DNA of 62,696 nucleotides, counting the filler, from Stramenopiles sp. TOSAG23-6 (taxonomy: Eukaryota): NCBI GenBank assembly GCA_900128565.1. It is 7 parts of 7 records of this genome, joined end to end, with 100 filler letters (N's around TTAATTAATTAA, not from the genome) between each part and the next. Parts side by side here need not be neighbours in the genome. Positions count along the whole stretch, not along the records: positions 1 to 11,901 come from LT636230.1; positions 12,002 to 23,891 come from LT636231.1; positions 23,992 to 35,827 come from LT636232.1; positions 35,928 to 47,762 come from LT636233.1; positions 47,863 to 59,688 come from LT636234.1; positions 59,789 to 61,192 come from LT639106.1; 1 more part is not named here. The stretch is one strand, 5' to 3'. Position 1 is the first letter of the stretch, and each line of letters opens with the position of its first letter. Made by a program: the position numbers and the translations under genes. This document shows, piece by piece, positions 1 to 61,192 of this stretch. The notes under the pieces are model-generated. The model was given only the letters and a program-made list of their open reading frames with translations, ran no database searches and was not told the DNA's origin.

Positions 1-2
1 CA

Positions 3-8570: not shown

Positions 8571-10141
8571 TCAGTCTTGACAGGCAAATGGTTTATAGAC
8601 ACCAGGCGATCCATGTGATGATTCTAGCCCTAACCCTAACCCTGAACAAATTCCAACAACCAAAATTATGCAAAATCCAATATTAAGTAAAACATATAAT
8701 GACACGAAAGGAACTTCTAAAAAGCCTACTCTTAAATATAATAACTTATAAGNCATGAGAATTGTTCCACTAGGGAGTAAATAAAATATCACATTTTGAC
8801 ATAGGCCATAAAAGAAAGCGAATAGATCTGACACGTGTCGTGAAATATATGTCAAATTTGAGATTGATTNCGTACAGATTTTGGTACAAAACAAATAAAT
8901 TTGAAAAGAAAGATGAAAACATACATAAACGGTACGACACAAGCTAAGATAAAGCAAAATGATACTAGTAAAATTGTCATACTAAACCACTGAAATATGT
9001 CTTGTGTTTTTGTCACAAAATGAAAAACTCCTTTATAATGTAGCGTTTTTCTTATTATTTGCAATAGGACTATTTGACGTATTGTATAACCAACTATNAG
9101 ATTAACTAATAATATTATGGTACAAGTTTTCATGATATACCAATTTTGTAGTATTTGTATTAACGTGGACGGTGTTTTTTCACCCATAATCATGAATGCA
9201 AGGCAACATAAAGATATATAGGCTGCAATGATAATAATTAAAGAAATAAAAGTTGCTTTCGGAAAATCACGCGGTTGTTTCATTTCTCTGACAATTTCCA
9301 AGTAAACATCACAGCTAGAAAAAACAAATTGAATACCTAAAATAGCATACGCTATATCCCAGACTTCACTTTTTAAATTTTGATTATCATAGATAGCTTT
9401 TGGAGTTAGAAGATTCAACTTTTTTCTTTCATTCTTTCCAAATAAAACACCGGAACTCAAAACAAAAAGGATCACAAATGAAAAACAAGATACCACACTA
9501 AAGTATACTACATTCGACAGCTTCTGAATCTGTGCTGGTATAATCACACATAAGCACATTATAATNGTAGAAGTCGGTAAACAAATTACATATTCAGCTG
9601 TCANTTGAACTAATTTTCCCCCTAGTCGAAGATACAAAGACATCGTGTATATTAAATAGAAAATATGGAAAAAGTACACAAACGAATACCACTTTTTACC
9701 TAAAATTTGATACACTNCATCAGCAAAATTTTGCGCATTTGGAAAAGCAATATGAAATCGTGTAAATATTATACTTGTGTAAAGTGTGACTAGAAAGAAC
9801 GAAAAAACAACTATAAAACCGTATACCAAGCCGAGAGCTCTAAAGTTACCCATAATTGACATAACTCCTGCACACCCCAATATGTTACTAGATTGTAACA
9901 GAATGGTATCTAATAAATTATTTCCCCCCTCCCTTACTTTAGTATTGTTTCTTTGCCGAAAATGTCTAGACAATGTATAATTTTCAATGTGCTGCAACTT
10001 GCGTGAATCAACCACTTTCTGAGAATCACTACTATTCGTGTGAATATACTTACTATTGGACACTTCATGTGAATCATTNTCGTCGAGTAGTNGAAGAGAC
10101 TCGACATCATCATTTTCTTTTTGATGTAAAGACATTACCAT
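8571..10141 (-). CDS. Amino acid transporter (Aa_trans/AAAP); exons 10141-8925 and 8832-8571
   Basis: Multiple TM segments, EMKQPRDF; PFM|SDLF rejoined after removing 8924-8833. Confidence 0.85.
8833..8924 (-). mobile_element. Introner-family non-canonical intron, GT-GT (92 nt)
   Basis: at|GTATGTTTTCATC...TTCACGACAC-GT|g; restores PFMSDLF. Confidence 0.75.
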
Positions 10142-10508
10142 TTATCTTTCCCACTTTTAAAACGGAAGATTCGGTGTATTTTTCACTATTTTTAGAGGTA
10201 TTTTTTTTCGAAAATTTTTTTTGAAATTTTTTTTTTGAAAGATTTTCGCACAAACCTGTTTCACGTCACTCGNACTCAAAAAAAAATATTCAAAAAGTTT
10301 CAAAAAACGTTTCAGAATTTCAGAAACTTCTTTTGTGCTTTGGTACACTTTTCTTGTACTTAAAACTAAGAATTTTCTTTGAAATACCCTCGTTCAACTC
10401 TTTCGCNAAAAAGATTCAAGAAAAGCTATCATTGTTTTCTCCAAAAAAATTGACAATTGTTGCCATTATTAGTTTCCACTTGATTACGCCTTNAAAACAT
10501 CTCTCAAA

Positions 10509-11849
10509 ATGATGGATGATACCCTTATTGCAGAACTCGCTGAACCAGCAGAGACAAAAGTAACAGCTCCAGGTCATGAACTTCCACTGGCCACCCGCCA
10601 AGTAACAGTGTCTAGTGAAACTGATAATATATGGGAGGAATTAGGAGAAAATTCTCGTATATCTCATAATGAGACAAGACAGCAATCTGGTACACCTGTA
10701 GATTCGGTATCCGAAGGTCCTTTTGCTTTTTTTGAGCGTGTTCGTGAAGTTGTTTTGGGTTCTTCACCTGACAAAACTCCTTTTAATGACTGCGTTGAAG
10801 ACGCAGAAGACTTGGAAGCTCCGTACCACCCTGTATCAAATGGACAGCAACAAGGAAGTTGTGACAATCAGTGTACAGATTCCTATTCTCGTGAATTTTT
10901 TTCGGGTGTTCAAGATGTTCCTGGCACAGAGTCACTTCTTGGCGGAAACCGTCGTGTAATTGTGTCGCATGAGACAAATACTAACGGTGCTCTACGAAGT
11001 CTTAACTGTATACGTAATTCTGTACATGTTGTTGGTGATGGTATTGTTGGTGCAGGTGTTGGTCTTGGTATAGTTAGTGGTGATGCAGTGTCTAGTGATG
11101 AAGAGGACTTTATTGACACTGATAAGTTGACAGGATCAACAACAACCAGAAATATTGGAAATTCTACTGCTAGTGGAAAAGAATGGGCCGCTGTATCAAA
11201 TCTTGATCAATTCTTTCAAGAAATGTATAAGTATTACCGTGAGAAAGGATTCGTATGTATGGTTCTCACAAGACTAACTAATTTAGCATCATTAGCTTTC
11301 ACAATTGCATTCTCAACTTTTGTATTTTTATTTGTGAATTGGTCCAATTTACTAAAGTGTCACTCAGAAAGTTCTTGTAAAACTTTAGAAGAATACATCA
11401 CATTTGACTCTCTTACTACCATGTGGAATAACCCATATGCTTCAAGTCATTGGGAAAAAATTGTGGCTGGATATACCATTGTTTTTTTCATCCACTGGCT
11501 GTGGTCTTTTTTATCTTTTTTTCCGACGCTAAAATGCGCATTTGAAATGAAAAAATTTTATAGAGATAAATTAGGCCTTCGAACACGGGATCTTCAAACA
11601 ATACCATGGAGTGAAGTGACAAAGAGACTTGCTCAGTTACAATGTAATGGCGTTTATATAATGCAAATTAACAAAAATGATGTTAATGCGCATGATGTTG
11701 CAAGTCGAATTATGCGGAAGGATAATTATTTAATTGCATTATTCAACAAAAATATTTTAGATTTATCAATTCCATTACCCTGTCCAATCCGATGTGTGAT
11801 AGAAAAGTTATTGGGGAAATTAAATACAAAAATGTATTTAACAAGACAT
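10509..11849 (+). CDS. ATG9: Autophagy protein 9, 3'-partial
   Basis: NLDQFFQEMYKYYREKGF and AHDVASRIMRKDNYLIALFNK. Confidence 0.93.
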
Positions 11850-11901
11850 GTATGTTTTCAGGATCAATTTTAAATTTATTTATATTTCGTACGAAATTTT
11901 G
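11850..11901 (+). mobile_element. Introner-family intron truncated by contig end
   Basis: at|GTATGTTTTC...TTTCGTACGAAATTTTG then gap. Confidence 0.75.
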
Positions 11902-12001
11902 NNNNNNNNNNNNNNNNNNNNNNNNNNNNNNNNNNNNNNNNNNNNTTAATTAATTAANNNNNNNNNNNNNNNNNNNNNNNNNNNNNNNNNNNNNNNNNNN
12001 N
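11902..12001. other. Artificial contig spacer; also at 23892-23991, 35828-35927, 47763-47862, 59689-59788 and 61193-61292
   Basis: Identical N44-TTAATTAATTAA-N44 six-frame-stop linker. Confidence 0.98.
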
Positions 12002-12003
12002 CA

Positions 12004-13323: not shown

Positions 13324-13376
13324 TATATTTCAAGTTAATAACAAGGAAAACAATATAATTTATGTATAAAATTTTA

Positions 13377-20486: not shown

Positions 20487-20560
20487 TTAACTCTAACCCT
20501 AATAAATTTTAAAATATATCTAGTACAAAATTAAATGTGATAAAATGCAATGCATATTAT

Positions 20561-22131
20561 TCAGTCTTGACAGGCAAATGGTTTATAGACACCAGGCGAT
20601 CCATGTGATGATTCTAGCCCTAACCCTAACCCTGAACAAATTCCAACAACCAAAATTATGCAAAATCCAATATTAAGTAAAACATATAATGACACGAAAG
20701 GAACTTCTAAAAAGCCTACTCTTAAATATAATAACTTATAAGNCATGAGAATTGTTCCACTAGGGAGTAAATAAAATATCACATTTTGACATAGGCCATA
20801 AAAGAAAGCGAATAGATCTGACACGTGTCGTGAAATATATGTCAAATTTGAGATTGATTNCGTACAGATTTTGGTACAAAACAAATAAATTTGAAAAGAA
20901 AGATGAAAACATACATAAACGGTACGACACAAGCTAAGATAAAGCAAAATGATACTAGTAAAATTGTCATACTAAACCACTGAAATATGTCTTGTGTTTT
21001 TGTCACAAAATGAAAAACTCCTTTATAATGTAGCGTTTTTCTTATTATTTGCAATAGGACTATTTGACGTATTGTATAACCAACTATNAGATTAACTAAT
21101 AATATTATGGTACAAGTTTTCATGATATACCAATTTTGTAGTATTTGTATTAACGTGGACGGTGTTTTTTCACCCATAATCATGAATGCAAGGCAACATA
21201 AAGATATATAGGCTGCAATGATAATAATTAAAGAAATAAAAGTTGCTTTCGGAAAATCACGCGGTTGTTTCATTTCTCTGACAATTTCCAAGTAAACATC
21301 ACAGCTAGAAAAAACAAATTGAATACCTAAAATAGCATACGCTATATCCCAGACTTCACTTTTTAAATTTTGATTATCATAGATAGCTTTTGGAGTTAGA
21401 AGATTCAACTTTTTTCTTTCATTCTTTCCAAATAAAACACCGGAACTCAAAACAAAAAGGATCACAAATGAAAAACAAGATACCACACTAAAGTATACTA
21501 CATTCGACAGCTTCTGAATCTGTGCTGGTATAATCACACATAAGCACATTATAATNGTAGAAGTCGGTAAACAAATTACATATTCAGCTGTCANTTGAAC
21601 TAATTTTCCCCCTAGTCGAAGATACAAAGACATCGTGTATATTAAATAGAAAATATGGAAAAAGTACACAAACGAATACCACTTTTTACCTAAAATTTGA
21701 TACACTNCATCAGCAAAATTTTGCGCATTTGGAAAAGCAATATGAANTCGTGTAAATATTATACTTGTGTAAAGTGTGACTAGAAAGAACGAAAAAACAA
21801 CTATAAAACCGTATACCAAGCCGAGAGCNCTAAAGTTACCCATAATTGACATAACTCCTGCACACCCCAATATGTTACTAGATTGTAACAGAATGGTATC
21901 TAATAAATTATTTCCCCCCTCCCTTACTTTAGTATTGTTTCTTTGCCGAAAATGTCTAGACAATGTATAATTTTCAATGTGCTGCAACTTGCGTGAATCA
22001 ACCACTTTCTGAGAATCACTACTATTCGTGTGAATATACTTACTATTGGACACTTCATGTGAATCATTNTCGTCGAGTAGTNGAAGAGACTCGACATCAT
22101 CATTTTCTTTTTGATGTAAAGACATTACCAT
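20561..22131 (-). CDS. Amino acid transporter (duplicate); GT-GT introner intron 20914-20823
   Basis: Near-identical to 8571-10141. Confidence 0.85.
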
Positions 22132-23839: not shown

Positions 23840-23995
23840 GTATGTTTTCAGGATCAATTTTAAATTTATTTATATTTCGTACGAAATTTTGNNNNNNNNN
23901 NNNNNNNNNNNNNNNNNNNNNNNNNNNNNNNNNNNTTAATTAATTAANNNNNNNNNNNNNNNNNNNNNNNNNNNNNNNNNNNNNNNNNNNNAACT

Positions 23996-24151: not shown

Positions 24152-25779
24152 GTATATATTCAACTATAGGGAGTGATTACGACACATGACCTGTTCTGAA
24201 CGATATTTGCTTTGAGCCACCCTTTAGGGAGGTTCGGCTAACGTGTGGATACAACATGCACCACCAAATGAACCCTATCATTTTTGTTCAGTTGAACCAT
24301 TTTTTTCTTTTTTTTTTTACAATAATAAGATCTGGTATGCGAGCTTTGGGATGTAGTAACCCTCAGCAGCTACCACTGCAATGATTTGCGCTGAGTTTTC
24401 TTTTCTAAGTTAACATTTCATGACGTCAATGCAAAGCTAAAGATCTTAAAGTAACGAAGTTGTTGAGCTGCTATGTATTCTACATGTATAGTTCTATATG
24501 TACAAATATGTGTAGTATTGTAACGTGCTCCTTCTTTTCGGTCTCTATATTCCTAGTCTTGATNTTAGCAACTATGTTGCCATTGATGTTGAGAAAAACC
24601 ATAGATGAAACAACCCTAACCACAACCCTAACCATATGAAACACTTTTTTATTTTTTATTTTTTTTTATTTTGATGTGTGTACTCATTTATTTTACTTTT
24701 TCGTATATATATTTTATAACAAAGAGTTCTTCCCTCTGTAGGCAATGAAGTTTTAAAGTCTGTAGTCGCTCAATATCCTGCTTCAGAGCTCTTAACGAAG
24801 CGTGACGAAGTTTCTAAAGATATTCGTAAACAATTGACCACTCGCTGTGCTGAATTTCATATTGATTTGGATGATGTATCAATTACGTACGTAATATTAT
24901 TACACAAACCCTAACCCTAATGTTTTGTACAGATTGTATGAAATATTTTGAAATATTTCGTGTTATTTTCCATTTTTATGATCTTTTATTTTGATTTATG
25001 GCATCAATCAATCATTGAGGGCATTGACGACAACACAATTAATTGAGACTTTTGTTCTACAAACAAATACTCGATGAACGATTGAGATTTCTGCCCGAGC
25101 CCTTTTTTGTTTGGTACGATTNTTTTTCATACGAAATTTCGTACCTAACGATTTTTTTTTGTTTGGTACGATAGCAAAAAATTGCCAATTTAAAGTATTT
25201 CATTTTTTTTTTCGTACGAANTCTTTGAGATTGTTTTCATTTGATTTAAAATTGTATGATGATTGGAATTAAACCATCTTTCGACTGACTGGGTGTTGCA
25301 ACCCACAAGTGATTACGAAAAGGTCCCAACATTCTGACAATAATCAATCTAAAGTTTATTTTTTTTTACTATGAAAATTTCTCCAACAAATTATGTGTTT
25401 TACTATTTGCTTTTATATTTTCAATGTCTCATTTCAAAACTTTGTTTGACAATATTTTTAATACAACAGTCATCTTACATTTGGTNCAGAGTTTACCAAA
25501 GCTATTGAGCACAAGCAAGTTGCACAGCAGGAAGCCGAACGTGCAAAATTTATTGTTGAAAAATCTGAACAAGAAAAGAAAGCTAAAATTATAACCTCTG
25601 AAGGTGAGTCTGAATCCGCGGAATTGTTTGGAGAATCTATTAAAACACATGGAAATGGTTTCTTGGAGTTGAGTAGAATTCATGCTGCCACTGAGATTGC
25701 ACACACTCTTGCTAGATCTCGAAATGTCACATATATGCCACCTGGAAATTCTTCTAATATGCTTTTAAGCATTAAGTAA
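24152..25779 (+). CDS. PHB: Prohibitin, 5'-partial; exons ~24152-24186, ~24723-24886 and 25470-25779
   Basis: [28 protein letters not shown]...[37 protein letters not shown]; intron 24887-25469 is GT-AG. Confidence 0.92.
24166..24278 (+). ncRNA. Box C/D snoRNA, snR55/U33-like (copy 2, 170 nt downstream)
   Basis: Identical to 23996-24108. Confidence 0.7.
25251..25341 (+). ncRNA. Intronic box C/D snoRNA, snR39/U51-like, with two guides
   Basis: ATTGT/ACAAT stem, box C ATGATGA, D' CTGA, C' GTGATTA, D CTGA; guides ACCATCTTTCG and GGTCCCAACA are antisense to LSU UGUUGGGACCCGAAAGAUGGU. Confidence 0.85.
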
Positions 25780-26076: not shown

Positions 26077-28382
26077 TTATCGTTTTCTTTTGTTCCCTAT
26101 TATTGTATCATTTGAACGATTCATTACCTTTCGCATAGCATCCCAATCGCCTAATGTACCATCATGGGACTCTATAATTCGTGCATGCACATCAGGATAT
26201 ATTTTCTTCAAAAATTCACCAGCCATTTCACTTCTTTTTTTTTCTTTATTACGAGTTTGTTGAGATGTTTCACTGCCTCCTTTAGTGCCAAGCTTCTGAA
26301 CTATCCAAATTGGTCTTGGTTTTCTAACATGTCCACTACTTCCAACACACCCCAAATACATACAATTTGATAATCGCCACATCATAAATAAAACCATTTT
26401 TTCACATACTAAAACGCCTGCAGAAGGAATATCTGTAATATGTATCGCCATGTAACCGCCTTTATCCAACAAGCTCCATGCTCGTGATAACGAAACATAT
26501 AAAAAACCAACAAGCCAGTCATTAAACTGCTGAAATGTGTCCATAGATTGCCCCTTTAATGAAGTATATACTTCAAAATCAAAAAATGGAGGTGAAGTGA
26601 ATACGAGATCATACCTTTCTAATTGGCCTCTTCCTCCTTTTTTACTATTTTTATCCAATTTTCGTGGTAGAGCTGCTGTTTCAAAAGGCTCGTACACAAT
26701 AGTTGCATTTGTACGCATGTATTTTGAAAAACAATTTCAAAAAAAAAAACTAAAATTTGTTAGGTACAAAATTTCGTACGAAAAAAAATCAAAATTGAAA
26801 AAAAATAAAACCTACAGACTACGACCAGGTCGAGAAAGACGTTGAAAACGCTCGATGATTTTATCATGACCAGATTTAAGTTCAGAATTAGGATCACATG
26901 CTACATGTATTGTGAAAAAAAAAACATTTTAGTCAAACAAATTGTTAAGATACAAAATTTTCTACCAAAAAAAAAATTAAAATTTTTAAAAATGATGAAA
27001 ATGTACATATCTCTCAACACCTGCAGCAAGAGCACCGATGAGACGATCGCCCCAACCTGCACTTATATCTAATACACGAGTCGCCCTGAAGAGTTTCATA
27101 ACAGATGCTGCAAGACTTGCTTTAAATTGAGTACATATATTGTGAAAAATTATTTTACATTTAATTTTTTTGTTAGGTACAAATTTTTGGTACAAAATAT
27201 ATATATATATTACGTTCAATTTTGAAATCGGACATTCTCTTAGGCATTTCCACATGGCTTCCCGCATTGCAAATGGTGTTAAACCCTCAGGTCTTTCCAT
27301 TGTAGCTTCGATGAGTGACTTTTGAAATACTTTGTCTTCAGCATACATTTCTAAAGGACATAAAGTTTGTATTGTGAAAAAATATTTTTTTTTCGTGCAA
27401 AAAAATCGTTAGGTACAAAATTTCGTACGAAAAAAAAATGAAATTCATGATGAAAAGGTACTTGATCTTTACGCCTCGCTGACATTCTCTGAACTTCAGT
27501 GAAATAATCAGTCACAATGTCCATGTCCCAATACTCGCTATCTTTATGCATAAATAAAACAAAATTAAAATCATCTTTTTTTTGTGGATTACGCATTGCG
27601 ATCTGTAAAAAACCTCTAGGAGTTTTGAATTTCACATTAAAAGGTTTGAAGGTTTCATTAGAGACGTCGATGCTACACCTTTGTAAATTTCTGAATTTTT
27701 GGTCAATATCTGTAAGGTAATGCACTTTTAAGGGGAATGTGATATGACCCAATTGCATTAGTTGGCACATAGCNGTAACAATATAGCTTGCACCAAACTC
27801 TGTAACTAAAAGTTTTAACTTCGCCTTTGGTAAATGAATTTGGGAATTACTATCAATAAAATGATACATTAGAGCTCGGCATGATATTGCACCAATATCT
27901 CCTAGTAACTGTACAACACGATCATTTTTAATACTTCTTTCCTTGCATAAGATAGGAATCCATTCGCGGCGTAGTTGTCGCATTTTGCTACAAGCTTTAT
28001 TTGCTTCTTCAAGAAGAGCAGTGCGCAGATCTTTTGTTTTTTTACGTATTTTTTGCTCAACATCATCACACATACCAAGGAGTACACGTGTACGCTCTAC
28101 TCTACCTTCTGAACCTGACGGTGATTCAACTCTAAGATAATCAATTAACTTATCNCGCAATCCAACCAGCTTTANAAGATAAGTTTTTTTTCGCAGTAAG
28201 GTTTCATCACGTTGGCTCTGACATTTGTTCTCCCAACGAGAAACTAAGTCAAGGAGGAAGAGTAGAGGTTTTGAACCTGCCTCTCGACCTCGAACAACAT
28301 CAGCTGCTTCTTTCAATGCAGTTTCTTGACCACTGAGTAAAATATTAAGACGCTCATCTTCTGGGTCAAAAGTCTCATCCAT
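26077..28382 (-). CDS. SAM-dependent amino-(N6A/N4C) DNA methyltransferase-like protein, five exons
   Basis: ECTQFK, VLDISAGWGDRLIGA, Y|VACDPN and DLVFTSPPFFDFEVY reconstructed by removing four introner introns. Confidence 0.8.
26717..26815 (-). mobile_element. Introner intron, GT-AT (99 nt)
   Basis: ct|GTAGGTTTTATT...core...TCAAAATAC-AT|g. Confidence 0.8.
26905..27006 (-). mobile_element. Introner intron, GT-AT (102 nt)
   Basis: at|GTACATTTTCATC...CACAATAC-AT|; restores ERY|VACDPN. Confidence 0.85.
27135..27233 (-). mobile_element. Introner intron, GT-AT (99 nt, in frame)
   Basis: at|GTCCGA...CACAATAT-AT|gt; restores RECTQFK. Confidence 0.7.
27367..27461 (-). mobile_element. Introner intron, GT-AA (95 nt)
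   Basis: aa|GTACCTTTTCATCATG...CACAATAC-AA|; restores RKDQ|TLCPLEM. Confidence 0.85.
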
Positions 28383-35772: not shown

Positions 35773-35827
35773 ATGTATTTTGGAAAAATATTTCAAAAAA
35801 AAAAAAAACTAAAATTTGTTAGGTACA
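35773..35827 (-). mobile_element. 3' half of an introner intron at contig end (ends AT)
   Basis: GTACCTAAC...TTCCAAAATAC-AT|. Confidence 0.75.
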
Positions 35828-43065: not shown

Positions 43066-45172
43066 TCAAAATAAACTACGCAATGTTTTAGTCAGTTCAA
43101 CTAAAGCGAGCGTGTCTCTTTCACAATATTCTAATAAAGACTTTCGTACTTTTCGTCTTTCCTTACCTGTATATTCTTTGGTCATGATAAACTTTTCCAG
43201 CATCACTGCAGCTAATTGGCCTCCATGAACATCTAAATCCTCATAGGACATGTCGGGTATTAAAGCAGGCAGAACTTTTTTAAGACTAAAACTACCATGA
43301 AAATTTGGATGGTATACGTAGTTTCGTATCACAGGTAGTAAATCGACAAATTTGTCATTCATGCTTAATAATATATCAGCATCCTTTGGTGGAAGAAAAC
43401 GAGAAAGATCGTGAATGACACGCTTCTCAAATGATGCTGAGTATTCATTGTGAAAAATAGTACAAAAAAATGATTTTTTCCGTTAGGTACAGAATTTACA
43501 ATCAAAACAAAATCGAATTAAACAATACATTTGAAATGAATGATGAAAATATACATGCAACAAATGTTTTTACATTTTTCAATTTTTTTACCAAGGTAGC
43601 GGCTAACTTTGGACGAGGGTCATTGGCATCTTCTGATAGCCATTCAATATGTGATAATTCCCCATTACATGACAGATAATGAACCGATACCTGCACAGCT
43701 ACTTGACCGTATGGTCTTACATGAGGCCAGATAGGTATAACACTATTGATTGCTTCAAAATCAATGTATTTTGGAAAAATATTTCAAAAACAAATCGTCA
43801 GGTACAAAATTTTTATAAAAAAAAAATTCGAATTTGAAAATAAAATAAAATAAAATAAAACATTCATGAAAGCTACTGGAGGTATAATCTTACTCAATTC
43901 TTTTTCAAGTCCAGGTTGAATGACTAATTTATTTTCTTTATGTGATTCAACTTGTCTCTTTTGAATAGCTGATAAAGATATATCAGAAGGTATATCCTCA
44001 ATTTTATCAATTTCGCGAAAACGCAAAATTTTCATCAATTTTTCATTTTTTCTGTATAATTCATCAATATTTCCAATTCCTGTTTGATTACACCGATTGT
44101 AAAAAGGACAAAGATATGGTTTTTTACAATGTTTCCCCGGAGTCACTTTGGGTCTCCTCTCTGTTTTTGTTATACTGTCTCATGAAAAAAAAAAATCAAA
44201 TTTTTTTGTTAGGTATAAAATTTCGTATTAAAAAAAAAAAAAGTCAATTTTGAAAACGTACACATCTCGTAAATGTTTTGCTATGTAAGGAATATCGGAA
44301 ACCAAGTCACGTGCCTCCAAAGTTACATTATTACGTTTAAAAAGTGATTGTTTGCTATTGTGACTTTTATTGTTGTTGTTGTTGTTGTTGTCTGACGATG
44401 ATGGTTGATCTTTTGTAAAATTAGAATAAGATGGAGTGGGCTGGTTCATTTGTAACCGATTTTTTAATTCTTTCACTAAAATATTTTTTTTTCTATTTGC
44501 TTTAATTCCAAAACTTTTACAATACTTTTGAAGATCGCGATAACTTAATGTATCTATAGACGCACAATCTAATTTAAGATGTGAGGAAGAGTTGATTTTA
44601 ATATCCGAAAATACACTTGTATTTGAAATTTCGTAATCCTTATTTAACGTCAAAACATCCACCTGATCAACTGTAACTCCTTGAGACTCTAGGACATATA
44701 TTTGAACGGCTACATCAAATATATGTTGTTTCTTAACCGAATTTGTCGACTTGACTTCTATAATATTCCAAGCACAATCATTATCTGTATTGCGTTCAAG
44801 AACATCTACCGCAACAAAAATACCGTCGTGAGTAAACGAAGCTTCATAAATTAAGGACGATTCACTTTCCATGGCACGTTTCGTAGCCTCAACCATGAGA
44901 CTTTTATTTGATTCATATTGAATAAGAACACCATTTGGAAATGATTCCATTGCTGCTTTGCCTACCCTGTGTCCATTGTCAAAAACAGCCTGTAACTCGG
45001 GCGATATTTCAAGTTCTGGTGCATCAGGTTCATGAATAGTATTCCAAAGCAACAATGGACACTGATGACCTGAAAGTATTCTAGACTTTGATAAACCCCC
45101 TATAGAAGACGCATATCGATGTCGTGCTAAATTAAATAAAGAAATGCGGATATACTTACTCAACATGTGCAT
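43066..45172 (-). CDS. DUF2779-family protein: PD-(D/E)xK nuclease, SAP-like insert and RNase H-like domain; four exons
   Basis: LSKSR..G.QCP, VDVL...IIEVKS, DFE, SFEK, GSFSLKKVLPAL, LLEYCERDT. Confidence 0.85.
43443..43554 (-). mobile_element. Introner intron, GT-AT (112 nt)
   Basis: Restores FVAYSASFEK. Confidence 0.8.
43764..43865 (-). mobile_element. Introner intron, GA-AT (102 nt)
   Basis: at|GAATGTTTTATT...TCCAAAATAC-AT|t; restores AFIDFE. Confidence 0.8.
44175..44261 (-). mobile_element. Introner intron, GT-AG (87 nt)
   Basis: GTACGTTTTC...ATACCTAAC...CATGAGAC-AG|. Confidence 0.85.
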
Positions 45173-47709: not shown

Positions 47710-47762
47710 GTATGTTTTATTTTTTTTCAATTTCGAATTTATTTTTCGTACGAAATTTTGTA
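47710..47762 (+). mobile_element. Introner intron truncated by contig end
   Basis: at|GTATGTTTTATT...TTCGTACGAAATTTTGTA then gap. Confidence 0.78.
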
Positions 47763-48824: not shown

Positions 48825-51800
48825 ATGAAGGTGGGAGATACTATAGTTGCTCTATACGACTATATCCCAGATGAGAATGATGGTTTAAGTCTTGAGGAAG
48901 GTTTAGAACTAGTTGTTATTGAAATAGACGGTGACTGGACGTGTGCACGACTCTGTTCAGGTGCTACTAGTGGTTGGATACCGACAAACTATGTTGAAAA
49001 GGTAAAAAAGAAAAAGAAAAAGGAAGTTCCCTCTCTTCCGAATAGTAGTCGGCGTGTATCGCCTTTACAGCACGAGCATTATATGATTACGAAGCCGAAG
49101 ATGAAGGTGAAATGACGATCAGGCTCGGGGACTTGATCTCTGTTATTGAAGACTCAGATTCTGACTGGTGGGTTGGTACGTTACGGGGCAAAACAGGATC
49201 ATTTCCGCGTACATATGTTGAAGTGGTGTCCAATACTTCACGGGACGATACAACTGAATCAGTATCATATGATGCTGAGATCAGAGCTGAAAAAGAAAAT
49301 AAACGAGAAGAAAAGGAACGTCAACAACGTGAAAAAGAACGCACTGAGCGAGAGCAGCGTGAAAAAGAGCAGCGTATAAAACGAAGGAAGGAACGTGAAG
49401 AAGCTGAACGTAAGAGAAAGATGGAAGCAAGTGCGAAAAAATCAAATATAAAATCTAAAAAAAATGGCATAAAGAAAGCAAAGAAAAATAATAACAGTGC
49501 ATTAATGGCTGCTATTGCAGGTAAAAAGAAAAGTGGACCACCCTCTGGTGATAGAAGTGCATTAATGGCTGCTATTGCAGGTAAAAAGAATAAGAAATCG
49601 AGCAAACGACAATGCGAAGAAGAATCAGGTCATCAATTATTTACAAAAAGTAAAGAAAAACTAAATCGTAAAAAAAAAGATCGATTGCGTCGTCGGAAAG
49701 CTGTGGAATCTGTACGTTTTCATCATGAATTTTAAATTAGTATGTAATTTTTGTAGAAAGTTTTGTACCTAACTATTTTTTTTAAACCAAAAAAAAAAGA
49801 TATTTTTCACAATATTCGTACGCCTTATTGCGGATGTTCACGGAGTGGATGATATGGTTTTATTGCCTAAACTATCTGACAAATCAATCGTAGGAAATTT
49901 ATCTCAGCGTCACAAGAATGATATCATTTACACTTATATTGGAAATGTTTTAATTTCGTTAAATCCTTTTAAATGGATAAAAATGTATGACGAATTTCAT
50001 ATCAATAAGTACAAAGGTAAACAACCTGTCGATGTGCCACCTCACGTATATGCTGTTGCAGAGTCAGCGTATAGGGAAATGAATGAAGAGGAAGAAAGTA
50101 TGTTTTATTTTTTTTCAATTTCGATTTTTTTTTCGTACGAAATTTTGTACCTTGTACCTAACAAATTTTACAAAAAAAATATTTTTTCACAATACAAGCC
50201 AATGTGTTATAATCAGTGGAGAGTCTGGAGCTGGTAAAACCGAAGCTGCTAAGCAAATCATGAGATATATAGCTGCTGTCAGTGCTGGTGGTCATTCAGA
50301 AGCTGTAGCTCGTGTTAAAGATGTCATTATGGAAAGTAATGCAGTATTAGAGGCATTTGGTAATGCAATGACTTTGAGAAATAATGTACGTTTTCATTTC
50401 AATTTCGAATATTTTTTTTCATACGAAATTTTGTACCTGACAAGTTTTTTTAGATTTTTTGAAATATTTTTTCATAATCCATAATTCTTCTCGGTTTGGT
50501 AAATATTTGGAAATACAATTTGATCTTCAAGGAACACCAAGAGGGGGAAAAATTACAACATATTTACTTGAAAAATCTCGAATTGTCCGTCCAAGTGAAG
50601 GGGAAAGATCTTTTCATGTACGTTTTATTTTTTTTTCAATTTCGATTTTTTTTTTTATAAAAATTTATATTTTATATGATGCTTTTTGGTATGCCAGAAT
50701 CACTTCGATCAAAATTAGAACTCGGTTCTCCTAATGAATTCGCGTACTTAAGACAAAGTGGAACATATACCATTGATAATGCTGGTGGTAAAATTAACGA
50801 TAAAACAGAATATCAAGATATGACAAGAGCTATGGATAAGATGGGAATCACGAAAAATGATCGTCTAGAAGTATTTAAATTATTAGCAGGAATTTTACAT
50901 CTAGGTAATGTAACTTTCAAACCCAAAAGAATTGGATCTGCTGATGGTTCGTGTGTTGGTGATACACGTGCACTCGAAATTACCGCGGATCTTTTAGGTG
51001 TAGATTCTCAGTGCTTGGAATTTGCGTTGACATTTAGAATGATGCATACCGGTGGGGAAACATTTGAAGTACATTTTCATCACTTGATTTTTTAAAATTA
51101 TTTTTTTTTTTTGGTATGAAATTCCATACCTAACGAATTTTACAAAAAAAACTATTGTTGCATAATACATGTCCCAGAAAATCCAACAAAAGCAAATGCT
51201 GCAAGAGACGCACTTGCAAAAGCTATTTATTCAAAAATCTTTGATTTTCTTGTAAAAAAAATCAATTTATCATTGAAATTAAAAGATGAATTTGATGAAT
51301 TTGATAATGAGGACGATGAAGATGATTTACTTACGATTGGAGTTTTGGATATTTATGGTTTTGAAATATTTGAGACTAACTTTTTTGAACAGTTTTGTAT
51401 TAATTATGTCAATGAAAAATTACAACAGATTTTCATTGAGCTTACGTTAAAAGCTGAACAGGAAGAATATTCAAGAGAAGGAATTACTTGGACAGAAATC
51501 CCATTTTTTAATAACAAAATTGTTTGTCAACTGATTGAAGCTCGAAAGCCTCCAGGAATCTTTACAATATTAGATGACACCTGCAAAACCATTCACGCAG
51601 AATCACGGGGAGTTGACATTAAGTTTTTGGATAAATTGAAGAGCTTTCAATCAAAACATAAACACTTTACCGGGATGAAACACAAATTTGTTGTGAAACA
51701 TTATGCTGGAGATGTGGAGTATGTATGTTTTATTTTTTTTTTAAACAAAAAAATCGAATTGTTTTTTCGTACGAAGTTTTGTACCTAACAAATGTTTTTA

Positions 51801-54800
51801 GATTTTTTTGAAATATTTTTCCAAAATACAGACGGTGGATGGATTTTGTGTAGCTAATAAAGATTCTTTGGTAAGTGATATTGCTGATGTCTTGGCAACA
51901 AGTGAAAACATTCTTATCAAAGATTTTTTTTCTGATAATTGTCTAAAAAATGNAAAAAAAAAGAAAACATCTGGTGAGAAGATTAAAAATCAATCGAAAG
52001 CTTTAGTGAAAAAACTTATGGCTGCTAGTCCTCATTATATCAGATGTCTTAAACCAAATGATAAAAAAAGAGCTGATTTTATTAATCCAAATAGGATTTC
52101 TCATCAGTGTAAATATTTAGGTCTTTTAGAAAATATCAAAGTTCGCCGCGCAGGGTTTGCATATCGAGCAGAATTTCATCGTTTTGCAGAAAGATTTCGA
52201 CTTTTATCTTGTAAAACTTGGCCGAAGCGCTTCGTTGGTACTGAAAAAGAAGCATGTAGAGCAATCATAAATGATGCAAGTAGAATTATACCGGAATTAA
52301 ATGGCCCCGAGGCTCAACTAGGAAAATACAAAGTCTTTATTAAACGTCCAAAAACGTTTTTTAAACTGGAAAAACAACTTCAATTACGGCGCAGTGGTTT
52401 TGCTCTACAAATTCAAAATCTTTGGAGAAGATATTTAGCTCGTCGGGATCTTGTGGAATTACGTCTTTCAATAGGTCAATTATATACGAATAATAATAAA
52501 AGTCGAGCAAGGGGAAGTATTTATCGTCCCTATGATGGAAATTATTTACAACGATTGCCTGAAGCTGTACGTATTGCAGTAAATGACATTATCAGCTATC
52601 ATGATGACACAGAATTTATTGTTTTTGGTGATGTGATTAAAAAGCTTCAATGTGGTATTGGTGATGATCGAGATGGTATCATTGTTTCGAGAATCTTTGT
52701 TATTACGAATAAAGCAATATATATTATGGAACAAATGCAACGATGTCGTCAACTAATAGTCGGAAATGAAGGTCATATGACCTTACCTTCAAAACCAAAG
52801 AAATCAAACATGTTTTCTAGTTTATTAGGCAAATCTACAAAAACTATCGAAGAACTTGAAGCGAGTCAAGAAATTAGTGCCAAAAAATTCAAACATGTAC
52901 ATCTTCGCCGTCGTACTAAATTAATCAACATTACTAGTGTCACTGTATCAACCCTCAGTGATGATTTATTAATGATTTCAGTCAAAGAGGATAATGTTTC
53001 ACCAGTTCCAGATAAAAGTCACTGGTTACCAGACTCCCAATGTGATGCTTGCATGCAAACAGGTAAAGTATTTGGTAAGATATTTAATCGAAGACATCAT
53101 TGTAGATTGACAGGAAATCAGTATTCGGATAGTGTCTGTAATGCTTTAGTATTATTGCCAGACTTAGGATGGTATACTCCACAGCGAGTTCACGATGGTG
53201 CTATTGGTTTTGCTAGTACTGAGATGCGTGAAGATACTGTTCTTCTCTCTCAAAGAAAAACTGAAATTGCAGCTATTTTACATGAACGTTGTGCCAAGGA
53301 TAAACTAATGAAACGTTTTATTTACTTTTCGAATCAAATACGCCCAAAACAAGCTCCAATGAAAGAGTTATCGTGTACCGTTGCTGGGACAATTAATATT
53401 CAAAAATTTCGAAGTTCTAGTAGTAATTTGACCGATGCGAAACCTATTGGGTTTGAGGATTGGACTGTCTCTTCCCCAGCTGGTGTTTTACAAGATGTTG
53501 TAAAAGCTCGTTTAGAAAGAGATGAAGTACGGAAAGTCCGCCGTCAGAGAGAACGCGAAGACGAACGCCGAATTCGTATGTTTTCATGATGAATTCCATT
53601 TTGTTTTTGGTATGAAATTCCGTACCCTAACGATTTTTTTTATACAATATTTTTCACAATGCATGTAAAGATCGCCAAGAAGCTAGAGCCGCGGAGCGTG
53701 CTGAACAACGCGCTCAGCGTATTGCAGCAAAGCGTGCACGAAAAGCAGAATTACGAAAAAATGGTAAAAAAACTAAATGTGACCGGAAAGTGAATGATAA
53801 GTCTGTTATGTCATCAAAAAAAAAACGAGACGTTCCAACTTGGATGAAGAAAAAAACTACAACAAAGGTAGCAACAGTTCCAAATTCAAAACTAAAATTG
53901 AAAACAAGTAATATTATAGAAACAAAAAAAGTACAATCAAAAGTCTCTCGTCCACCTCCTCCAGCATTACTCTCCAACACAACTAAAAAGAAAACAAGTA
54001 TTCGTCCACCTCCTCCAGCATTACTCTCCAATACAACTAAAAAGAAAACAAGTATTCGTCCACCTCCTCCAGCATTACTCTCCAACACAACTAAAAAGAA
54101 AACAAGTATTCGTCCACCTCCTCCAGCATTACTCTCCAATACAACTAAAAAGAAAACAAGTATTACAAGTATTCGTCCACCTCCTCCAGCATTACTCTCC
54201 AACACAACTAAAAAAAAAACAAGTATTCGTCCACCTCCTCCAGCATTACTCTCCAACACAACTAAAAAAAAACAAGTATTCGTCCACTTTTACCAAAGGT
54301 TCCAAAAAGAGATAATAAATCAAAAAGTCAACCAGCGTGGATGGATCAACGACAGAACCAATTATCAGTTGTCACTGAAAAACAAAAGTTTACCAAGGCC
54401 AAAAAACGTTTATCCAAAGAAATTCCAATAAAAGATTCAACAAACATGGATACACCAAAACGTTTACCCATGCGACCTGTGCCAAAACTAAAAAAACTGA
54501 AGAAGAATAAAAAGGAAGTAGTGAAAGACAATAAAGAAGTTAAATCAAAAAAGACTCGAAATGATGGAAAAGAAAATAAAGAAGATAAAAAATCTATAGA
54601 AAGTCTAAAGAAAGCACAACAGGTAGCTGTAGATGCAAGAGATTTTCGTAAGGCAGCAGACTTGGGAGATAAGATAAAAGTATTAGAAGAAGAGCAAAAA
54701 AATGCAGAAAATAATCGAAACAATCAGAAGAAAATAGAAGAACTCGAAATTCGTTTGGAAAAGGCTGTGAAAAATCGAAATTATCACCTGGCTGGCGATC

Positions 54801-57241: not shown

Positions 57242-57718
57242 ATGACATCTACTCCTCCAGATATGGGAGAAGGTTCCGGATGGGTCTGTATATATCCTGT
57301 GTATATCGATGCAAGTCGTAGTTTAAAAGGTGGTAGAAGAGTTGCTAAAGAGCATTGTTGTTTGAGGCCAACAGCGCGACAAATTGCTGAGGTAGCAAAC
57401 GCACTACACTTACCTGTTTTTATTGATGGTAGAAAGAGACACCCACATGATTGCTTTACATACGGTCGTTGTCATATCCGTCTTCAACGAGATGGGCGCG
57501 ACGTTCACCCAAAGATTAAAACAAGAAAAGATTTAATGCGTGAGTTGGGCGTGAAAATACCAAGACTGAAGTCCCGGATCACCATGGAAGCAAATGTAGC
57601 AAAAATGGCATCTTTACAGATTAAGCAACAAGAAGCACAGGCAGCAAAGGCCCAATCTAGATCAACAGCGGGTTCCTCTAAAAAGAGTAAGAAAAAGCGT
57701 AACAAAAAAAAGAAATAG
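57242..57718 (+). CDS. SRP19: Signal recognition particle 19 kDa protein
   Basis: WVCIYPVYID...GRRV, KRHPHD...GR. Confidence 0.93.
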   Translation: MTSTPPDMGEGSGWVCIYPVYIDASRSLKGGRRVAKEHCCLRPTARQIAEVANALHLPVFIDGRKRHPHDCFTYGRCHIRLQRDGRDVHPKIKTRKDLMRELGVKIPRLKSRITMEANVAKMASLQIKQQEAQAAKAQSRSTAGSSKKSKKKRNKKKK

Positions 57719-57841
57719 ACTGTTGATTTTTAGGCAAATTTCCTAAAGGCCCTACAAAAACACTGATAGTTCGGCAACGGTGATAATAAATAAAAAATGT
57801 ATCCACGCTTACTCATAAACTATATTTATTTTCTATATTAA

Positions 57842-59633
57842 TCAAGTTATAACATCCAATGTTTCAAGTAGTGCGATATGAATAAGCGCATATGTCGCTT
57901 CTCTTTGTTGTGGACAGTTGGAAGAGGCATGAATATCTTTCTGGCCACTATATGATTTGATGAAAGCGAGACATAAAGTATCCCTCATCGCACAATTGAG
58001 AAGCTGCTTGGATGTATTGTTCATATTGTTTTTATTACATTCACAGCAACCATCTGGAATAGGATTTTGGACTGCTCCACTGTTAACAGATGATCCAGCT
58101 AGTGTTAATAGCATACCAGAGTATTCCTCTTTAATAAGTTCTTTAAAATCAAACCAATTGTCAGGTGCTTCAAATTCTTCAGGTTTTCTATTCATGACAA
58201 ATGACTCTTCTGTGTATGCCATATCAAAATCAAGAGGTCCTAAGAATGATCTAGGCGTTTCTGTGTATAATTCGGGTGGTAAAACAACAAAATTGTTTGC
58301 ATGTGCATTGCAATGAAATGGTCCAATTGCATCGCAAAAAGTTCCCCAACTGATTTTTTCCTCATGAAGTTTCTTAAGAAATTCACCACATTCCCAACCA
58401 AGCCTCCAATATAACTCACCAAGAAGACTTATTTTATCATGATTCGTATTTAAATCTGTCATATAAGATTGAATATATTGTTGTAGTATAAAGCGCTGCG
58501 TCTTATAGACCTCATGAATATTGGAAAAATATTTAAAAAAAAAAATTCGTTAGGTACAAAATTGCGTACGAAAAACAAAATTCGACTTTGAAAAAAAATA
58601 AAACACACATGAATATTGGAATCCTCAAGAAGAGAGAAAGAAAAAGGGTTCCAGTCATTTGGTGTTTTTAACTTGAATAGCAAAGTCGCATCCAATAGAG
58701 TTTCTTCATTGGCCATCCCCATCTCTGCAAGCATTGCAGTTGAAGTAAATTCAATCCTCTTAGTGTCACTACCAACAACAGATACCCTGTCACCAAAATC
58801 AAGTGAAGGAAATTTACTAGATAATAGTAAAGTAGTTGTTGACATTTTGGCAATATTATTATCATGACGACAATCTTTGACTGGTGAGGATGGTACCAAA
58901 ATTTCATACGAAAGAATTTTCTCAAGACCAGCAAGAAGGTGTGATCCAAGTCTGCGATTTCCAAATGTTTGCATTAATGAACAACACCGTTTCACTTTAG
59001 GTATAGGATGGAGAGGTGGTACATCATATTCGTACCAGCCAATAGGTTTATTTGCACAAAACATGTTTGATTGAAAAAGTAAATCATTGATCTTTGATGT
59101 CATAAATAGTTCACGGAGAGCTGTATGCTCGTGACTTGATCCACGAATTTGTCTGCAGGTTTTTCCAATCATTTTATTAAATTCTGAACGAATTATGAAG
59201 CCTTTCCCATTTGTCATTCCACAACCCTTTAAACGAAACCATTTATATTTATTTGTATTCGAGACATTCATTTGTATAATTGCGGATCGTTGACCACTTA
59301 CGTAGGCTGATATAGTACCATCATTCGTTTTTATTAAAGGATTCAATAGAGCTGCTGGAATATATTGAGAGCTACTCTTTATTTCAGAGTGTTCAGTTTC
59401 TTTTTCTTCAAAGGTTTCATTCATTGTAGTTATTTCATTTTCTTTTTCTTCAAAGGTTTCATTCATTGTAGTTATTTGATTTTCGACAATTATATCTGTA
59501 GCAGGAACCGCCGGAACCATTACATTACTATATTCTTCTCCCAATGAGGACATCGGCTGAAGTCGGCGAAGACTTGTACTGATATTATCCTCATTCTTTG
59601 TTGATTGTCGAAGGTTATTTTTCACATAACTAT
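57842..59633 (-). CDS. Kinase-like-fold hypothetical protein, 5'-partial; exons 59633-58609 and 58513-57842
   Basis: RLKGCG, ALREL, HCNAHANNF and PLDFD resemble kinase-superfamily motifs. Confidence 0.6.
58514..58608 (-). mobile_element. Introner intron, GT-AT (95 nt)
   Basis: at|GTGTGTTTTATT...core...TTCCAATATTC-AT|. Confidence 0.82.
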
Positions 59634-59688
59634 ATGTATTTTGGAAAAATATTTCAAAAAAAAAAAAAACTTAAATTTGTTAGGTACA
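59634..59688 (-). mobile_element. 3' half of an introner intron at contig end
   Basis: GTACCTAAC...TTCCAAAATAC-AT|. Confidence 0.75.
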
Positions 59689-59788
59689 NNNNNNNNNNNN
59701 NNNNNNNNNNNNNNNNNNNNNNNNNNNNNNNNTTAATTAATTAANNNNNNNNNNNNNNNNNNNNNNNNNNNNNNNNNNNNNNNNNNNN

Positions 59789-59882
59789 TTTTTTTTTTTT
59801 TTGTAAAATTTGTTAGGTACGAAATTTCGTATGAAAAAAAATTATAAATATATTTTTTTTTTTAATCCTATATAGTATGTAC
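59789..59882 (-). mobile_element. Introner intron truncated by contig end
   Basis: at|GTACAT...CATACGAAATTTCGTACCTAAC. Confidence 0.7.
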
Positions 59883-61192
59883 ATATGAGCTCGCTTCAAG
59901 TCATGTAAACTTTTTACGTATTTTTTACTACGCGTACGTGGAGTTGATTGAAACATAATTTTGATTTCTCTACCTAATTTTTGTGTGTTTGAATTTTTGT
60001 TTTTTGTACTTAATTTTTGTGTGTTTGAATTTTGTAACTGTAAACACTCTTTCAACTCAATCGCACAAATTTTATTCTCATATAAAGTTACCTGGTACTG
60101 TGCATGTATATTTTTGAAATATGCAATACATGTATTTACTTTTGTTAGATAAAAAAGTGAACTACAAACAAAATAGTTACACAATATATAAATGTTCTAT
60201 AAAAAAAATATTTAAAAAAAAAAAAATCGAAATTGAAAAAAAAAAAATTGAAATGAGTAATACAATAATAATGGTAAAATACATGACGGATATTTTCATC
60301 AAGGATAGGCAAATGATTACTCTTGGTATTTTTTATCAAATGACTCATGTTATTATACTGTTTATCTATAGAATGATTTTCGGACATTTTCTCTAGTGTC
60401 TCGATTTCTTGCAGTGCAACTAATTTTGCTATTTCTTGTTGTCGTCTATTTAATGTGAACGATATATATATATATATATTTGTTAGGTACAAAATTTCGT
60501 ATAAAAAAAAAAATAAAAAAAAATAAAAATAAAAAAAATAACTTATCTTTCTCAATTTTTGTAACTCTTTTTTCTGTAACGCTGACAAACATCTCTTCAT
60601 TGGATTAGGGTTAGGGTTCTTCATTGGGTTTGGGCTACTTTGTGTACTATCCTGTAGACCATGTATTTTGGAAAAATATTTCAAAAAAAAATTTTAAAAT
60701 TTGTTAGGTACGAAATTTCGTACGAAAAAAAAAATCGAATTTGAAAAAAAATAAAACATACATGTATATCATTCTGTTCTTTGTGTTGATTCATTTCATC
60801 AGAATTATCTTTTGTATTGGAATGATAAATACTTGACTCAATTGTTCCATGATGTTTGCTAATCGAATGCACTCCTGTAACATTACTTTCTTTAGTGTTA
60901 TGTTCAATATTATGTAAAGCTTTGTTGATTTTATGAACTTCTGCCTCAACGGCATGTTCAATATTATGTTCAATATTATGTATTTCATTCATAGCTTTAT
61001 GAGCTTCTGCTGCAACAGCATGTTCAATATTTTGTAAGTCATTCTTAAGTTTATGAGCTTCTGCTCCAACGGCATGTTTAATATTATGTTCAATATTATT
61101 TAACTCATTATTGATTTTATGTGCTTCTGCTCCAACAGCATGTTCAATATTATGTTCAGTATTATGTATTTCATTCTTAAGTTTATGAGCTT
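59883..61192 (-). CDS. Internal fragment of a hypothetical protein with (HNIE/HAV.AEAHK) repeats
   Basis: Frames joined across introns 60761-60661, 60546-60448 and 60282-60104. Confidence 0.55.
60104..60282 (-). mobile_element. Degenerate introner intron, GT-AT (179 nt)
   Basis: at|GTATTTT...ATCTAAC...AAAATATAC-AT|. Confidence 0.6.
60448..60546 (-). mobile_element. Introner intron, possibly AT-AT (99 nt, in frame; boundaries uncertain)
   Basis: ATAAGTTATTTT...ATACGAAATTTTGTACCTAAC...CACATTAA-AT. Confidence 0.55.
60661..60761 (-). mobile_element. Introner intron, GT-AT (101 nt), near-consensus copy
   Basis: at|GTATGTTTTATT...TTCGTACGAAATTTCGTACCTAAC...TTCCAAAATAC-AT|. Confidence 0.88.

Follow-up and report, generated by a model that had tools for sequence, protein, structure and literature searches.

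A single family of short elements, about 90-120 nt long, interrupts at least 11 unrelated genes of differing Pfam families in a 62,696-base stretch of DNA, called the window below, from the stramenopile assembly GCA_900128565.1 (Stramenopiles sp. TOSAG23-6). We put at roughly 0.7 the probability that the family is a short non-autonomous mobile element (an introner) whose copies have inserted in the coding exons of many genes and are most likely removed from pre-mRNA by the spliceosome. Comparison with homologues supports a 3' boundary that, for this dispersed introner-like family, would be independent of AG. Under the rule that the intron runs from GT to 2 nt past an AATAC-like motif, and only under it, fourteen junctions are gapless against uninterrupted homologues, namely all seven in a myosin gene (homologues P0003 and P0004), all three in a DUF2779 gene (P0240) and all four in a methyltransferase-like gene (P0241). 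At these homology-supported junctions the intron ends in AT in eight cases, AA in two, AG in two, TC in one and TT in one, i.e., 12 of the 14 ends are not AG. AG alternatives were tallied for each copy over an interval that reaches 20 nt back into the intron and 45 nt forward into the following exon, and for 8 of the 24 copies with both ends placed, six of those eight being homology-supported, there was no AG that preserved the frame. A preliminary description of this DNA had proposed an introner invasion with AG-independent choice of the 3' site, and the gapless junctions, their non-AG ends and the copies lacking a usable AG all support that proposal.

The element family and its copies

The window consists of seven contigs (1-11901, 12002-23891, 23992-35827, 35928-47762, 47863-59688, 59789-61192 and 61293-62696) and is not a single molecule. 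Six spacers of the form N44-TTAATTAATTAA-N44, a six-frame stop linker, lie between them (11902-12001, 23892-23991, 35828-35927, 47763-47862, 59689-59788 and 61193-61292), and therefore genes on either side of a spacer are not genomic neighbours. Contigs 1 and 2 (1-11901 and 12002-23891) are 99.87% identical over 11,901 aligned columns, with 4 mismatches and 2 gap openings, and the seeming 12-kb tandem repeat is assembly redundancy. The two contigs are either the same locus assembled redundantly or two alleles or cells, and the first 12 kb is double-counted unless removed. The element counts given here are for the non-redundant part of the window, with the duplicate copies in contig 1 excluded. 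Five of the six contigs followed by a spacer break off within the element core, which is the effect of a high-copy repeat on short-read assembly. An Rfam scan of the whole window matched no RNA family.

The order of parts within the element was read from an alignment of 22 copies. The 5' end is GTAYGTTTT, followed by a variable A/T-rich arm of which there are two subtypes, a T-run, and a palindromic core (CGTACGAAATTTYGTAC) that passes into CCTAAC, giving the motif ACCTAAC. After a variable spacer there is a second T-run, then a C and about seven bases closing in an AATAC-like motif, plus 2 nt. In the same alignment G1, T2, A3, the GTACCT.A block and the 3' T-run are conserved at 90-100%, while pairwise identity among copies has a median of 58% and a maximum of 88%. 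The conserved positions are those where donor, branch-site and polypyrimidine signals would sit, which fits splicing signals. Between the branch-like ACCTAAC and the 3' end there are 31-44 nt. When up to 3 mismatches were allowed, the 27-nt core pattern matched 23 times, compared with a mean of 0.00 in 100 shuffles, and a profile built from 12 copies recovered the family on one strand per site.

Introns were delimited by an excision rule, GT through 2 nt beyond the AATAC-like motif (the '+2' position). Both ends were placed for 24 copies, and four further copies are interrupted by contig ends (23840-23891, 35774-35827, 47710-47762 and 59635-59688). The 5' dinucleotide is GT in 23 of the 24 two-ended copies and GA in one; the 3' dinucleotide is AT in 16, GT in 2, AA in 2, AG in 2, TC in 1 and TT in 1. 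With AG at only 2 of 24 3' ends, the canonical GY-AG feature of surveyed introner families is absent from most copies. All 24 two-ended copies lie in the sense orientation of the host gene, as do the four that are cut by contig ends. The strand of the gene was fixed independently, by Pfam or by homologues, for 18 of the 24, and a 19th sense copy, one of those cut by a contig end, is in the Pfam-identified ATG9 gene. Such uniform orientation fits a scenario in which removal acts on RNA and antisense copies, lacking the signals, are selected against.

Much of the preliminary description is borne out by these figures. The core matches and the profile confirm the dispersed family with common motifs that it had recognized, and its claim that all copies are in host sense holds for every two-ended copy. 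Its total of 28 insertions is reached as well, but they are not all complete, four being cut by contig ends. Its tally of termini for 28 copies (AT 19, GT 3, AA 2, TC 1, TT 1, AG 2) had AT as the dominant end and AG at two copies, as here, but the AT and GT counts drop to 16 and 2 for the 24 two-ended copies. The family had been given as starting at 8833; the copy there (8833-8924) is the duplicate, in the redundant contig, of the one at 20823-20914.

The copies are as follows, with the intron given by its first and last dinucleotides and a slash marking the position of a junction in a protein motif.

20823..20914 (-), Aa_trans amino-acid transporter gene, GT..GT, 92 nt; joins two open frames, without a frame-preserving AG; duplicate at 8833-8924
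23840..23891 (+), ATG9 gene, element truncated at the contig end, 5' portion present; duplicate at 11850-11901
27367..27461 (-), methyltransferase-like gene, intron 1, GT..AA, AA also before the donor; gapless against P0241; no viable AG
27135..27233 (-), methyltransferase-like gene, intron 2, GT..AT, diverged 5' end; gapless against P0241, P0242 and P0249
26905..27006 (-), methyltransferase-like gene, intron 3, GT..AT; GVERY/VACDPN identical to P0241; no viable AG
26717..26815 (-), methyltransferase-like gene, intron 4, GT..AT, CT before the donor (no duplication); in frame; no viable AG; homology support weak, homologue region variable
33769..33860 (-), WD40 gene, GT..AT; upstream exon stops on the WD dipeptide, at WD40 profile position 39/39; an AG 15 nt upstream is also in frame
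33277..33370 (-), WD40 gene, GT..GT, GT also before the donor; both flanking frames Pfam-verified
35410..35500 (-), gene of unknown family, GT..AT; placed by frame only
35774..35827 (-), element truncated at the contig end, 3' portion present
36146..36203 (-), alpha/beta-hydrolase gene, truncated element; 3' end AG at 36158 or AT at 36146, both in frame
41679..41787 (+), gene E, GT..AT; placed by frame
41932..42032 (+), gene E, GT..AT; in frame using the register of the previous exon; no viable AG
42173..42280 (+), gene E, diverged element, GT..AT; placed by frame, with an in-frame stop inside
44175..44261 (-), DUF2779 gene, intron 1, GT..AG, AG at the homologous '+2' position; placed by alignment with P0240
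43764..43865 (-), DUF2779 gene, intron 2, GA..AT; ..VAF/IDFEAIN gapless against P0240
43443..43554 (-), DUF2779 gene, intron 3, GT..AT; split codon yields the conserved Y of VAYSA in P0240
46533..46655 (+), TPR gene, GT..AT, with a short telomere-like CCCTAAA insert; placed by frame
47710..47762 (+), element truncated at the contig end, 5' portion present
49712..49817 (+), myosin gene, intron 1, GT..TC; AVES/VR.. gapless against P0003 and P0004
50098..50197 (+), myosin gene, intron 2, GT..AA, AA also before the donor; split codon restores S ahead of the P-loop motif
50386..50482 (+), myosin gene, intron 3, GT..AT; LRNN/NSSRFGK identical in P0003 and P0004; two internal AGs unused; no viable AG
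50618..50666 (+), myosin gene, intron 4, GT..TT, 49-nt remnant (5' arm only); ERSFH/IFY; no viable AG
51069..51170 (+), myosin gene, intron 5, GT..AT; placed by homologue alignment
51723..51831 (+), myosin gene, intron 6, GT..AG, AG at the '+2' position; junction in an invariant motif
53576..53664 (+), myosin gene, intron 7, GT..AT, TC before the donor; low-complexity region, weaker
58514..58608 (-), gene I, GT..AT; placed by frame
59635..59688 (-), element truncated at the contig end, 3' portion present
60661..60761 (-), gene J, GT..AT; top match to the family profile
25116..25466 (+), prohibitin gene, longer intron (several hundred nt) with element fragments and an element-like 3' end, either AATAC+2 at 25466 or AG at 25469

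Assemblies of sequencing runs were compared with the 11.8-kb stretch 47863-59688; the runs that contain it are seawater or marine metagenomes and metatranscriptomes, together with two small runs of a single coded organism. In DNA run X1, 5,620 of 99,615 contigs matched it, and in DNA run X3 5,501 of about 6.56 million contigs did so, mostly through element sequence in both cases. These contig counts point to thousands of element copies. One additional in-frame copy was found on an unrelated metagenome contig, L001, which was also the one metagenome contig that carried the exact 22-nt degenerate core pattern; among viral contigs there were no matches to that pattern.

Partial copies of the element are also found in a 3' untranslated region (UTR), inside a longer intron and in unassigned DNA. 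A core fragment at 17254-17312 (+) (duplicate 5254-5311) lies directly past a stop codon, in sense, probably in the 3' UTR, so that partial copies occur outside coding sequence too. The partial copy at 19118-19170 (-) (duplicate 7128-7180) runs against the surrounding long frames, 18098-19018 and 19515-20483, which are both on the + strand and matched none of the families tested. At 34994-35116 (-), downstream of gene C, there is a composite copy with a tandemly duplicated 5' half (about 160 nt). Short telomere-like CCCTAAA repeats occur at 46545-46560, in the intron of the TPR gene, and on L001 at about 2300-2340 (minus strand), near the contig end. The C-terminal exon of the prohibitin gene (25467-25776, +) has an AG 3 nt beyond the '+2' site of the preceding intron, and directly past the prohibitin stop codon there is a tandem repeat of about 33 nt (25790-25900, +).

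Junctions and the 3' end

In a naive frame test, application of the excision rule joined the longest upstream and downstream open frames for 14 of 17 copies. Of the three exceptions, one was fixed by taking as donor GAATGT at 43865, which lies 5 nt upstream and was afterwards backed by homology, one by use of the frame of the previous exon (41932), and one by a GT 2 nt downstream (35500). Against P0003 and P0004, the seven myosin junctions are without a gap within 12 residues on each side and lie in invariant motifs. The spliced DUF2779 product aligns end to end with P0240; for the donor at 44261, ending the intron at the '+2' AG gave a gapless alignment that scored 1226, while ending it at the AT 3 nt further on gave one gap and a score of 1215. 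In the methyltransferase-like gene, three junctions fitted P0241 directly, and the fourth, as first placed (donor 27213), had a gap of 8 residues. The gap was removed by holding to the strict 3' rule and taking a diverged donor, GTCCGA, 20 nt upstream, which gave the intron 27233-27135. On these alignments the removal of the gap is a successful prediction of the excision rule. None of the three homology-tested spliced models (myosin, DUF2779 and methyltransferase-like) contains a stop. The preliminary description had named conserved motifs that are restored when the intron ends 2 nt after the AATAC-like motif; this is confirmed for the myosin, WD40, DUF2779 and methyltransferase-like genes. 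The hydrolase copy (donor 36203) is truncated, and its AG and AT ends are both in frame.

The homologue junctions also bear on the 5' register. When the sequence was read against them, GT had to be the first base of the intron wherever the two flanks differ. Moving the register 2 nt upstream produced a stop at 51723 and replaced a conserved S at 49712 and a conserved H at 50618. The last of these introns, 50618-50666, is only 49 nt long and has neither the core nor the 3' motif. Several copies skip internal AGs that lie 9-29 nt past the branch-like motif. In the copy at 33277..33370, a T-run followed by CAG (33282) lies 5 nt before the predicted site, and its use would shift the Pfam-verified WD40 frame. 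At 50098, use of an exonic AG would cost 8 or 11 residues at the P-loop region. Taken with the two introns that do end in AG, these alignments suggest that the '+2' register is strict even where an AG occurs.

The product of the myosin gene (49049-54428) is a class-I myosin in which TH1 and FYVE domains are present. Oomycete, labyrinthulomycete and other stramenopile proteins are related to it at 56-63% identity, and P0003 and P0004 at 78%; we take the host to be an uncultured marine heterotrophic stramenopile. A Fritillaria-like tunicate was considered as host and rejected on the strength of these myosin-FYVE homologues. Across the seven interruptions the exons are open, long and conserved, 1,592 columns aligning with P0003 at 59% identity. 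A near-identical public protein model, P0001, apparently of the same gene and with 'MAST' in its source label, has two of the seven junctions right, 51723, which is the sole GT-AG intron of the gene, and 53576. The remaining five are wrong in it, through loss of conserved residues, an added residue or translation of element sequence, and its junctions look forced onto other splice sites. A frame change at about 49062-49064, between the two N-terminal SH3 domains, is probably an assembly error or a rare allele and not an intron; an X3 contig has 10 extra bases there that would restore the frame. The part of the gene encoding the myosin tail has an imperfect 54-nt coding tandem repeat (53900-54300, +).

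In 13 of 25 copies, L001 counted, the intron closes with the same 2 nt that precede its donor (permutation P = 0.038). Among the ends other than AT, three of eight repeat the flank, both AA ends and one of the two GT ends (P = 0.024). These repeats suggest that the last 2 nt are probably a 2-bp target-site duplication, partly eroded, with AT targets preferred. A 3-bp duplication was rejected, as its third base, C, is constant at the 3' side and the flank agrees with it in only about half of cases; the constant C belongs to the element and lies outside the duplication. In folding of six copies, the minimum-energy structure paired both ends, flank included, in five. We restrict the structural claim to the palindromic consensus.

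Proposed explanation and its rivals

We propose that the element supplies its own splicing signals: the donor GTAYGT, the branch-site-like ACCTAAC beside the palindromic core, and the U-run. The 3' cut would be made at a fixed register, 2 nt past the AATAC-like end, irrespective of what those two bases are. If the final two bases are, as is probable, the second copy of a target-site duplication of 2 bp, the element would be spliced out together with one copy of the duplication, and the original coding sequence would be restored exactly. The sequence itself establishes the family, the sense orientation of its copies, the boundaries at which conserved proteins are restored and the lack of usable AGs at many sites; we infer removal on RNA by the spliceosome, the identity of the last 2 nt and the manner in which the 3' site is measured. 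A more specific version, on which our own judgement is evenly divided, has the 3' site set by a ruler, 2 nt past the element motif and about 10 nt after the U-run, not by AG, with a textbook donor and branch site kept. Probably thousands of copies would then be excised without a scar from any insertion site, exons would have been colonised genome-wide, and a change in how the 3' site is recognised (U2AF small subunit, Prp8, Slu7 or the Prp18 step) would have arisen independently of the tunicate and dinoflagellate cases.

Several observations weigh against spliceosomal removal of a mobile element. We saw no transposase and no autonomous copy in this analysis, and the terminal inverted repeat is very short, GTAT/ATAC, or about 8 nt if a bulge is allowed. 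The duplication signal is modest, 12 of the 25 copies having no 2-nt repeat. The folds of the six copies were not stabler than shuffles (z from -2.8 to +0.7), and covariation in the core hairpin and terminal stem was non-significant, with 2 compensatory cells and a score that 39 of 500 shuffles reached. Among 15 of 393 joints, those listed in the comparison of read assemblies, no exon-exon joint was found; the joints listed are mainly cross-matches between element copies. A contig from RNA library X6 (record 19, depth 2.8) is unspliced over 50421-50635, from the interior of myosin intron 3 across exon 4 and some way into intron 4. The RNA-library contigs that match the stretch, 812 in X6 and 108 in X8, evidently do so mostly through element sequence, with pre-mRNA or DNA carry-over possible. 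Finally, 16 of the 24 copies have some in-frame AG alternative, at the cost of inserting or deleting 1-15 residues. Exon cover in X6 and X8 is thin, at a few-fold. The ratio of element depth to exon depth is lower in a poly-A library than in DNA, a difference that was not used, as such depths equal neither copy number nor expression level. Transcript-derived proteins bridging the junctions were sought: among proteins of 101-322 amino acids none exceeded 72% identity, and among longer ones there was only the genomic model P0001.

The in-frame AG alternatives, which are free of stops, invite the explanation that the elements are spliced at nearby ordinary GT-AG (or GC-AG) sites and that the true proteins carry small insertions or deletions relative to our models. 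Two copies do end in AG (44175 and 51831). For one third of the two-ended copies no such AG exists, however, and in the three homologue-tested genes use of an AG would add or drop residues in alignments that are otherwise gapless at the junctions, as in the loss near the P-loop at 50098. The model P0001, seemingly forced onto other sites, gains or loses residues at five of the seven myosin junctions. We consider splicing at nearby AGs improbable. Slightly better, but still unlikely, is removal from RNA without the major spliceosome, either by the U12-type (minor) spliceosome, for which ends other than AG are tolerable, or by a structure-guided endonuclease and a ligase acting on paired ends. 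Some stramenopiles have minor introns, hundreds of them in Blastocystis, and AT-AA and AT-AT ends of minor introns are known from animal and plant surveys (PMC10639083). With an AT duplication, moreover, the introns described here could equally be written AT..AC, and the paired ends of the minimum-energy folds would suit an endonuclease. U12-type introns have the 5' end RTATCCTT and a TCCTTAAC branch site at a short distance from the 3' end. The donor GTAYGTTTT does not match that 5' end, and a branch-like motif 31-44 nt from the 3' end is far over the U12 distance; nor does a start at the preceding 2 nt suit those copies whose flanks differ, where it is GT that must begin the intron. As for the endonuclease, the terminal helix has just 4-7 bp, in folds that are no better than those of shuffles.

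Removal might instead take place on DNA, in a transcribed copy of the genome. Internal eliminated sequences of ciliates are short transposon-derived inserts in coding sequence that are bounded by a 2-bp repeat (TA) and are removed precisely from DNA, regardless of their orientation. Removal of an element with one copy of a 2-bp repeat is the pattern of transposase-derived excision, and one RNA-library contig does retain the element. But the repeat in our family is mostly AT, the uniform sense orientation is unexplained at the DNA level, and the donor, branch and U-run signals are conserved. The filled form is present in DNA runs: site 53576-53664 is spanned by contigs from the DNA runs of two studies (X1 record 6 and X3 record 13), and no empty-site DNA joint was found among the 15 of 393 joints listed. 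We know of no nuclear dualism in stramenopiles, and DNA-level removal seems to us scarcely credible. Nearly as hard to credit is the explanation that the elements are not removed at all, in which case the genes would be dead copies, or the insertions would have been created artificially during single-cell amplification or assembly. The assembly is a fragmentary one in which ambiguous bases are numerous and contigs break within elements, and the myosin has a frameshifting gap of 10 nt relative to an environmental contig. Yet the exons between elements are long, open and conserved in the three tested genes, whose spliced models have no stops, an independent metagenome run carries the same insertion (X3 record 13), and random insertions would not be uniformly sense. 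Spliceosomal removal of an introner with a fixed 3' register remains the explanation that we prefer.

Significance and comparison with known systems

If the proposal is correct, one more lineage has independently acquired transposon-made introns that do not obey the AG rule, in a host that is neither a tunicate nor a dinoflagellate. This would also be an unusually clean case, in that the donor and branch site are canonical and only the 3' rule is altered, which isolates the question of how the spliceosome chooses a 3' site without AG. For the origin of introns, it would mean that a target-site duplication can hide an insertion in mRNA at any target sequence. There would be practical consequences too. 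Gene finders restricted to GT-AG fail on such genomes, as P0001 illustrates for the myosin, and gene sets made for them with GT-AG-only tools are likely to suffer badly. For this ecologically abundant group there could be systematic errors in gene counts, in completeness scores and in the pseudogenes inferred.

Introner surveys begin from annotated introns and drop unfamiliar splice sites that lack transcript support (PMC12130899), a design by which this family would be missed. Our literature search, with supplementary files outside its reach, found no description of such introns in stramenopiles, and, among the papers listed, none that joins 'GT-AT' with 'introner'. The words 'splice' and 'canonical' are absent from the main text, as far as it was accessible, of a paper on single-cell genomes of marine stramenopiles (MAST; PMC5778133), and from the main text of a 2026 preprint on single-cell genomes of marine protists. 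A GT-AT signature had been called unfamiliar at the outset. A 3' AT does have a precedent: more introns end in it than in any other dinucleotide in Fritillaria pellucida (44%) and F. borealis (34%) (PMC13326754). What we have not found in print is a non-AG end apparently combined, in a stramenopile, with a canonical GTAYGT donor and a TACTAAC-like branch motif.

The introners of Micromonas pusilla and Aureococcus anophagefferens (PMC11282704, PMC9860276) are similar in that a short multi-copy element makes introns in unrelated genes, carries one splice site, and is removed in a length-neutral way by virtue of a target-site duplication. Their hosts, like ours, are marine picoeukaryotes, and Aureococcus is also a stramenopile. 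Their introns are GT/GC-AG, however, with an AG that is co-opted from the duplication or borne by the element, while in our family the end is mostly AT and varies with the flank. Length-neutral removal is thus known in other introners (PMC11282704, PMC9860276), and the difference is that here the duplicated bases need not be AG. The nonconventional introns of euglenids (PMC11282704) share non-canonical borders, duplication-like repeats at the junctions and pairing of the intron ends, but they are described as having neither a polypyrimidine tract nor a canonical donor, both of which are present here.

Amoebophrya, another marine protist, has repeated introns with direct repeats of a few nt over the exon-intron boundaries and with inverted repeats that pair the ends (PMC7789003). 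Its introns have no dominant termini, direct repeats of 3-5 nt and inverted repeats of 8-20 nt, and U1 snRNA is apparently absent there; our family has GT at the start of 23 of 24 introns, an inverted repeat of 4-8 nt and a conserved branch-site motif. In F. borealis and F. pellucida the introns derive from miniature inverted-repeat transposable elements (MITEs), most commonly end in AT and keep a U-rich tract (PMC13326754). In Fritillaria a YAY triplet forms the last three bases of the intron and often precedes the donor; here CAT or TAT closes 15 of 24 introns, and YAY precedes the donor in 8 of 24. Fritillaria is an animal, a tunicate, in which the 5' ends of F. borealis introns are also non-canonical (AG/AC, AG/AT) and the intron classes are highly diverse. 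By comparison, the stramenopile introns have a textbook GTAYGT donor, with GT in 23 of 24, and belong to one dominant family with conserved internal motifs.

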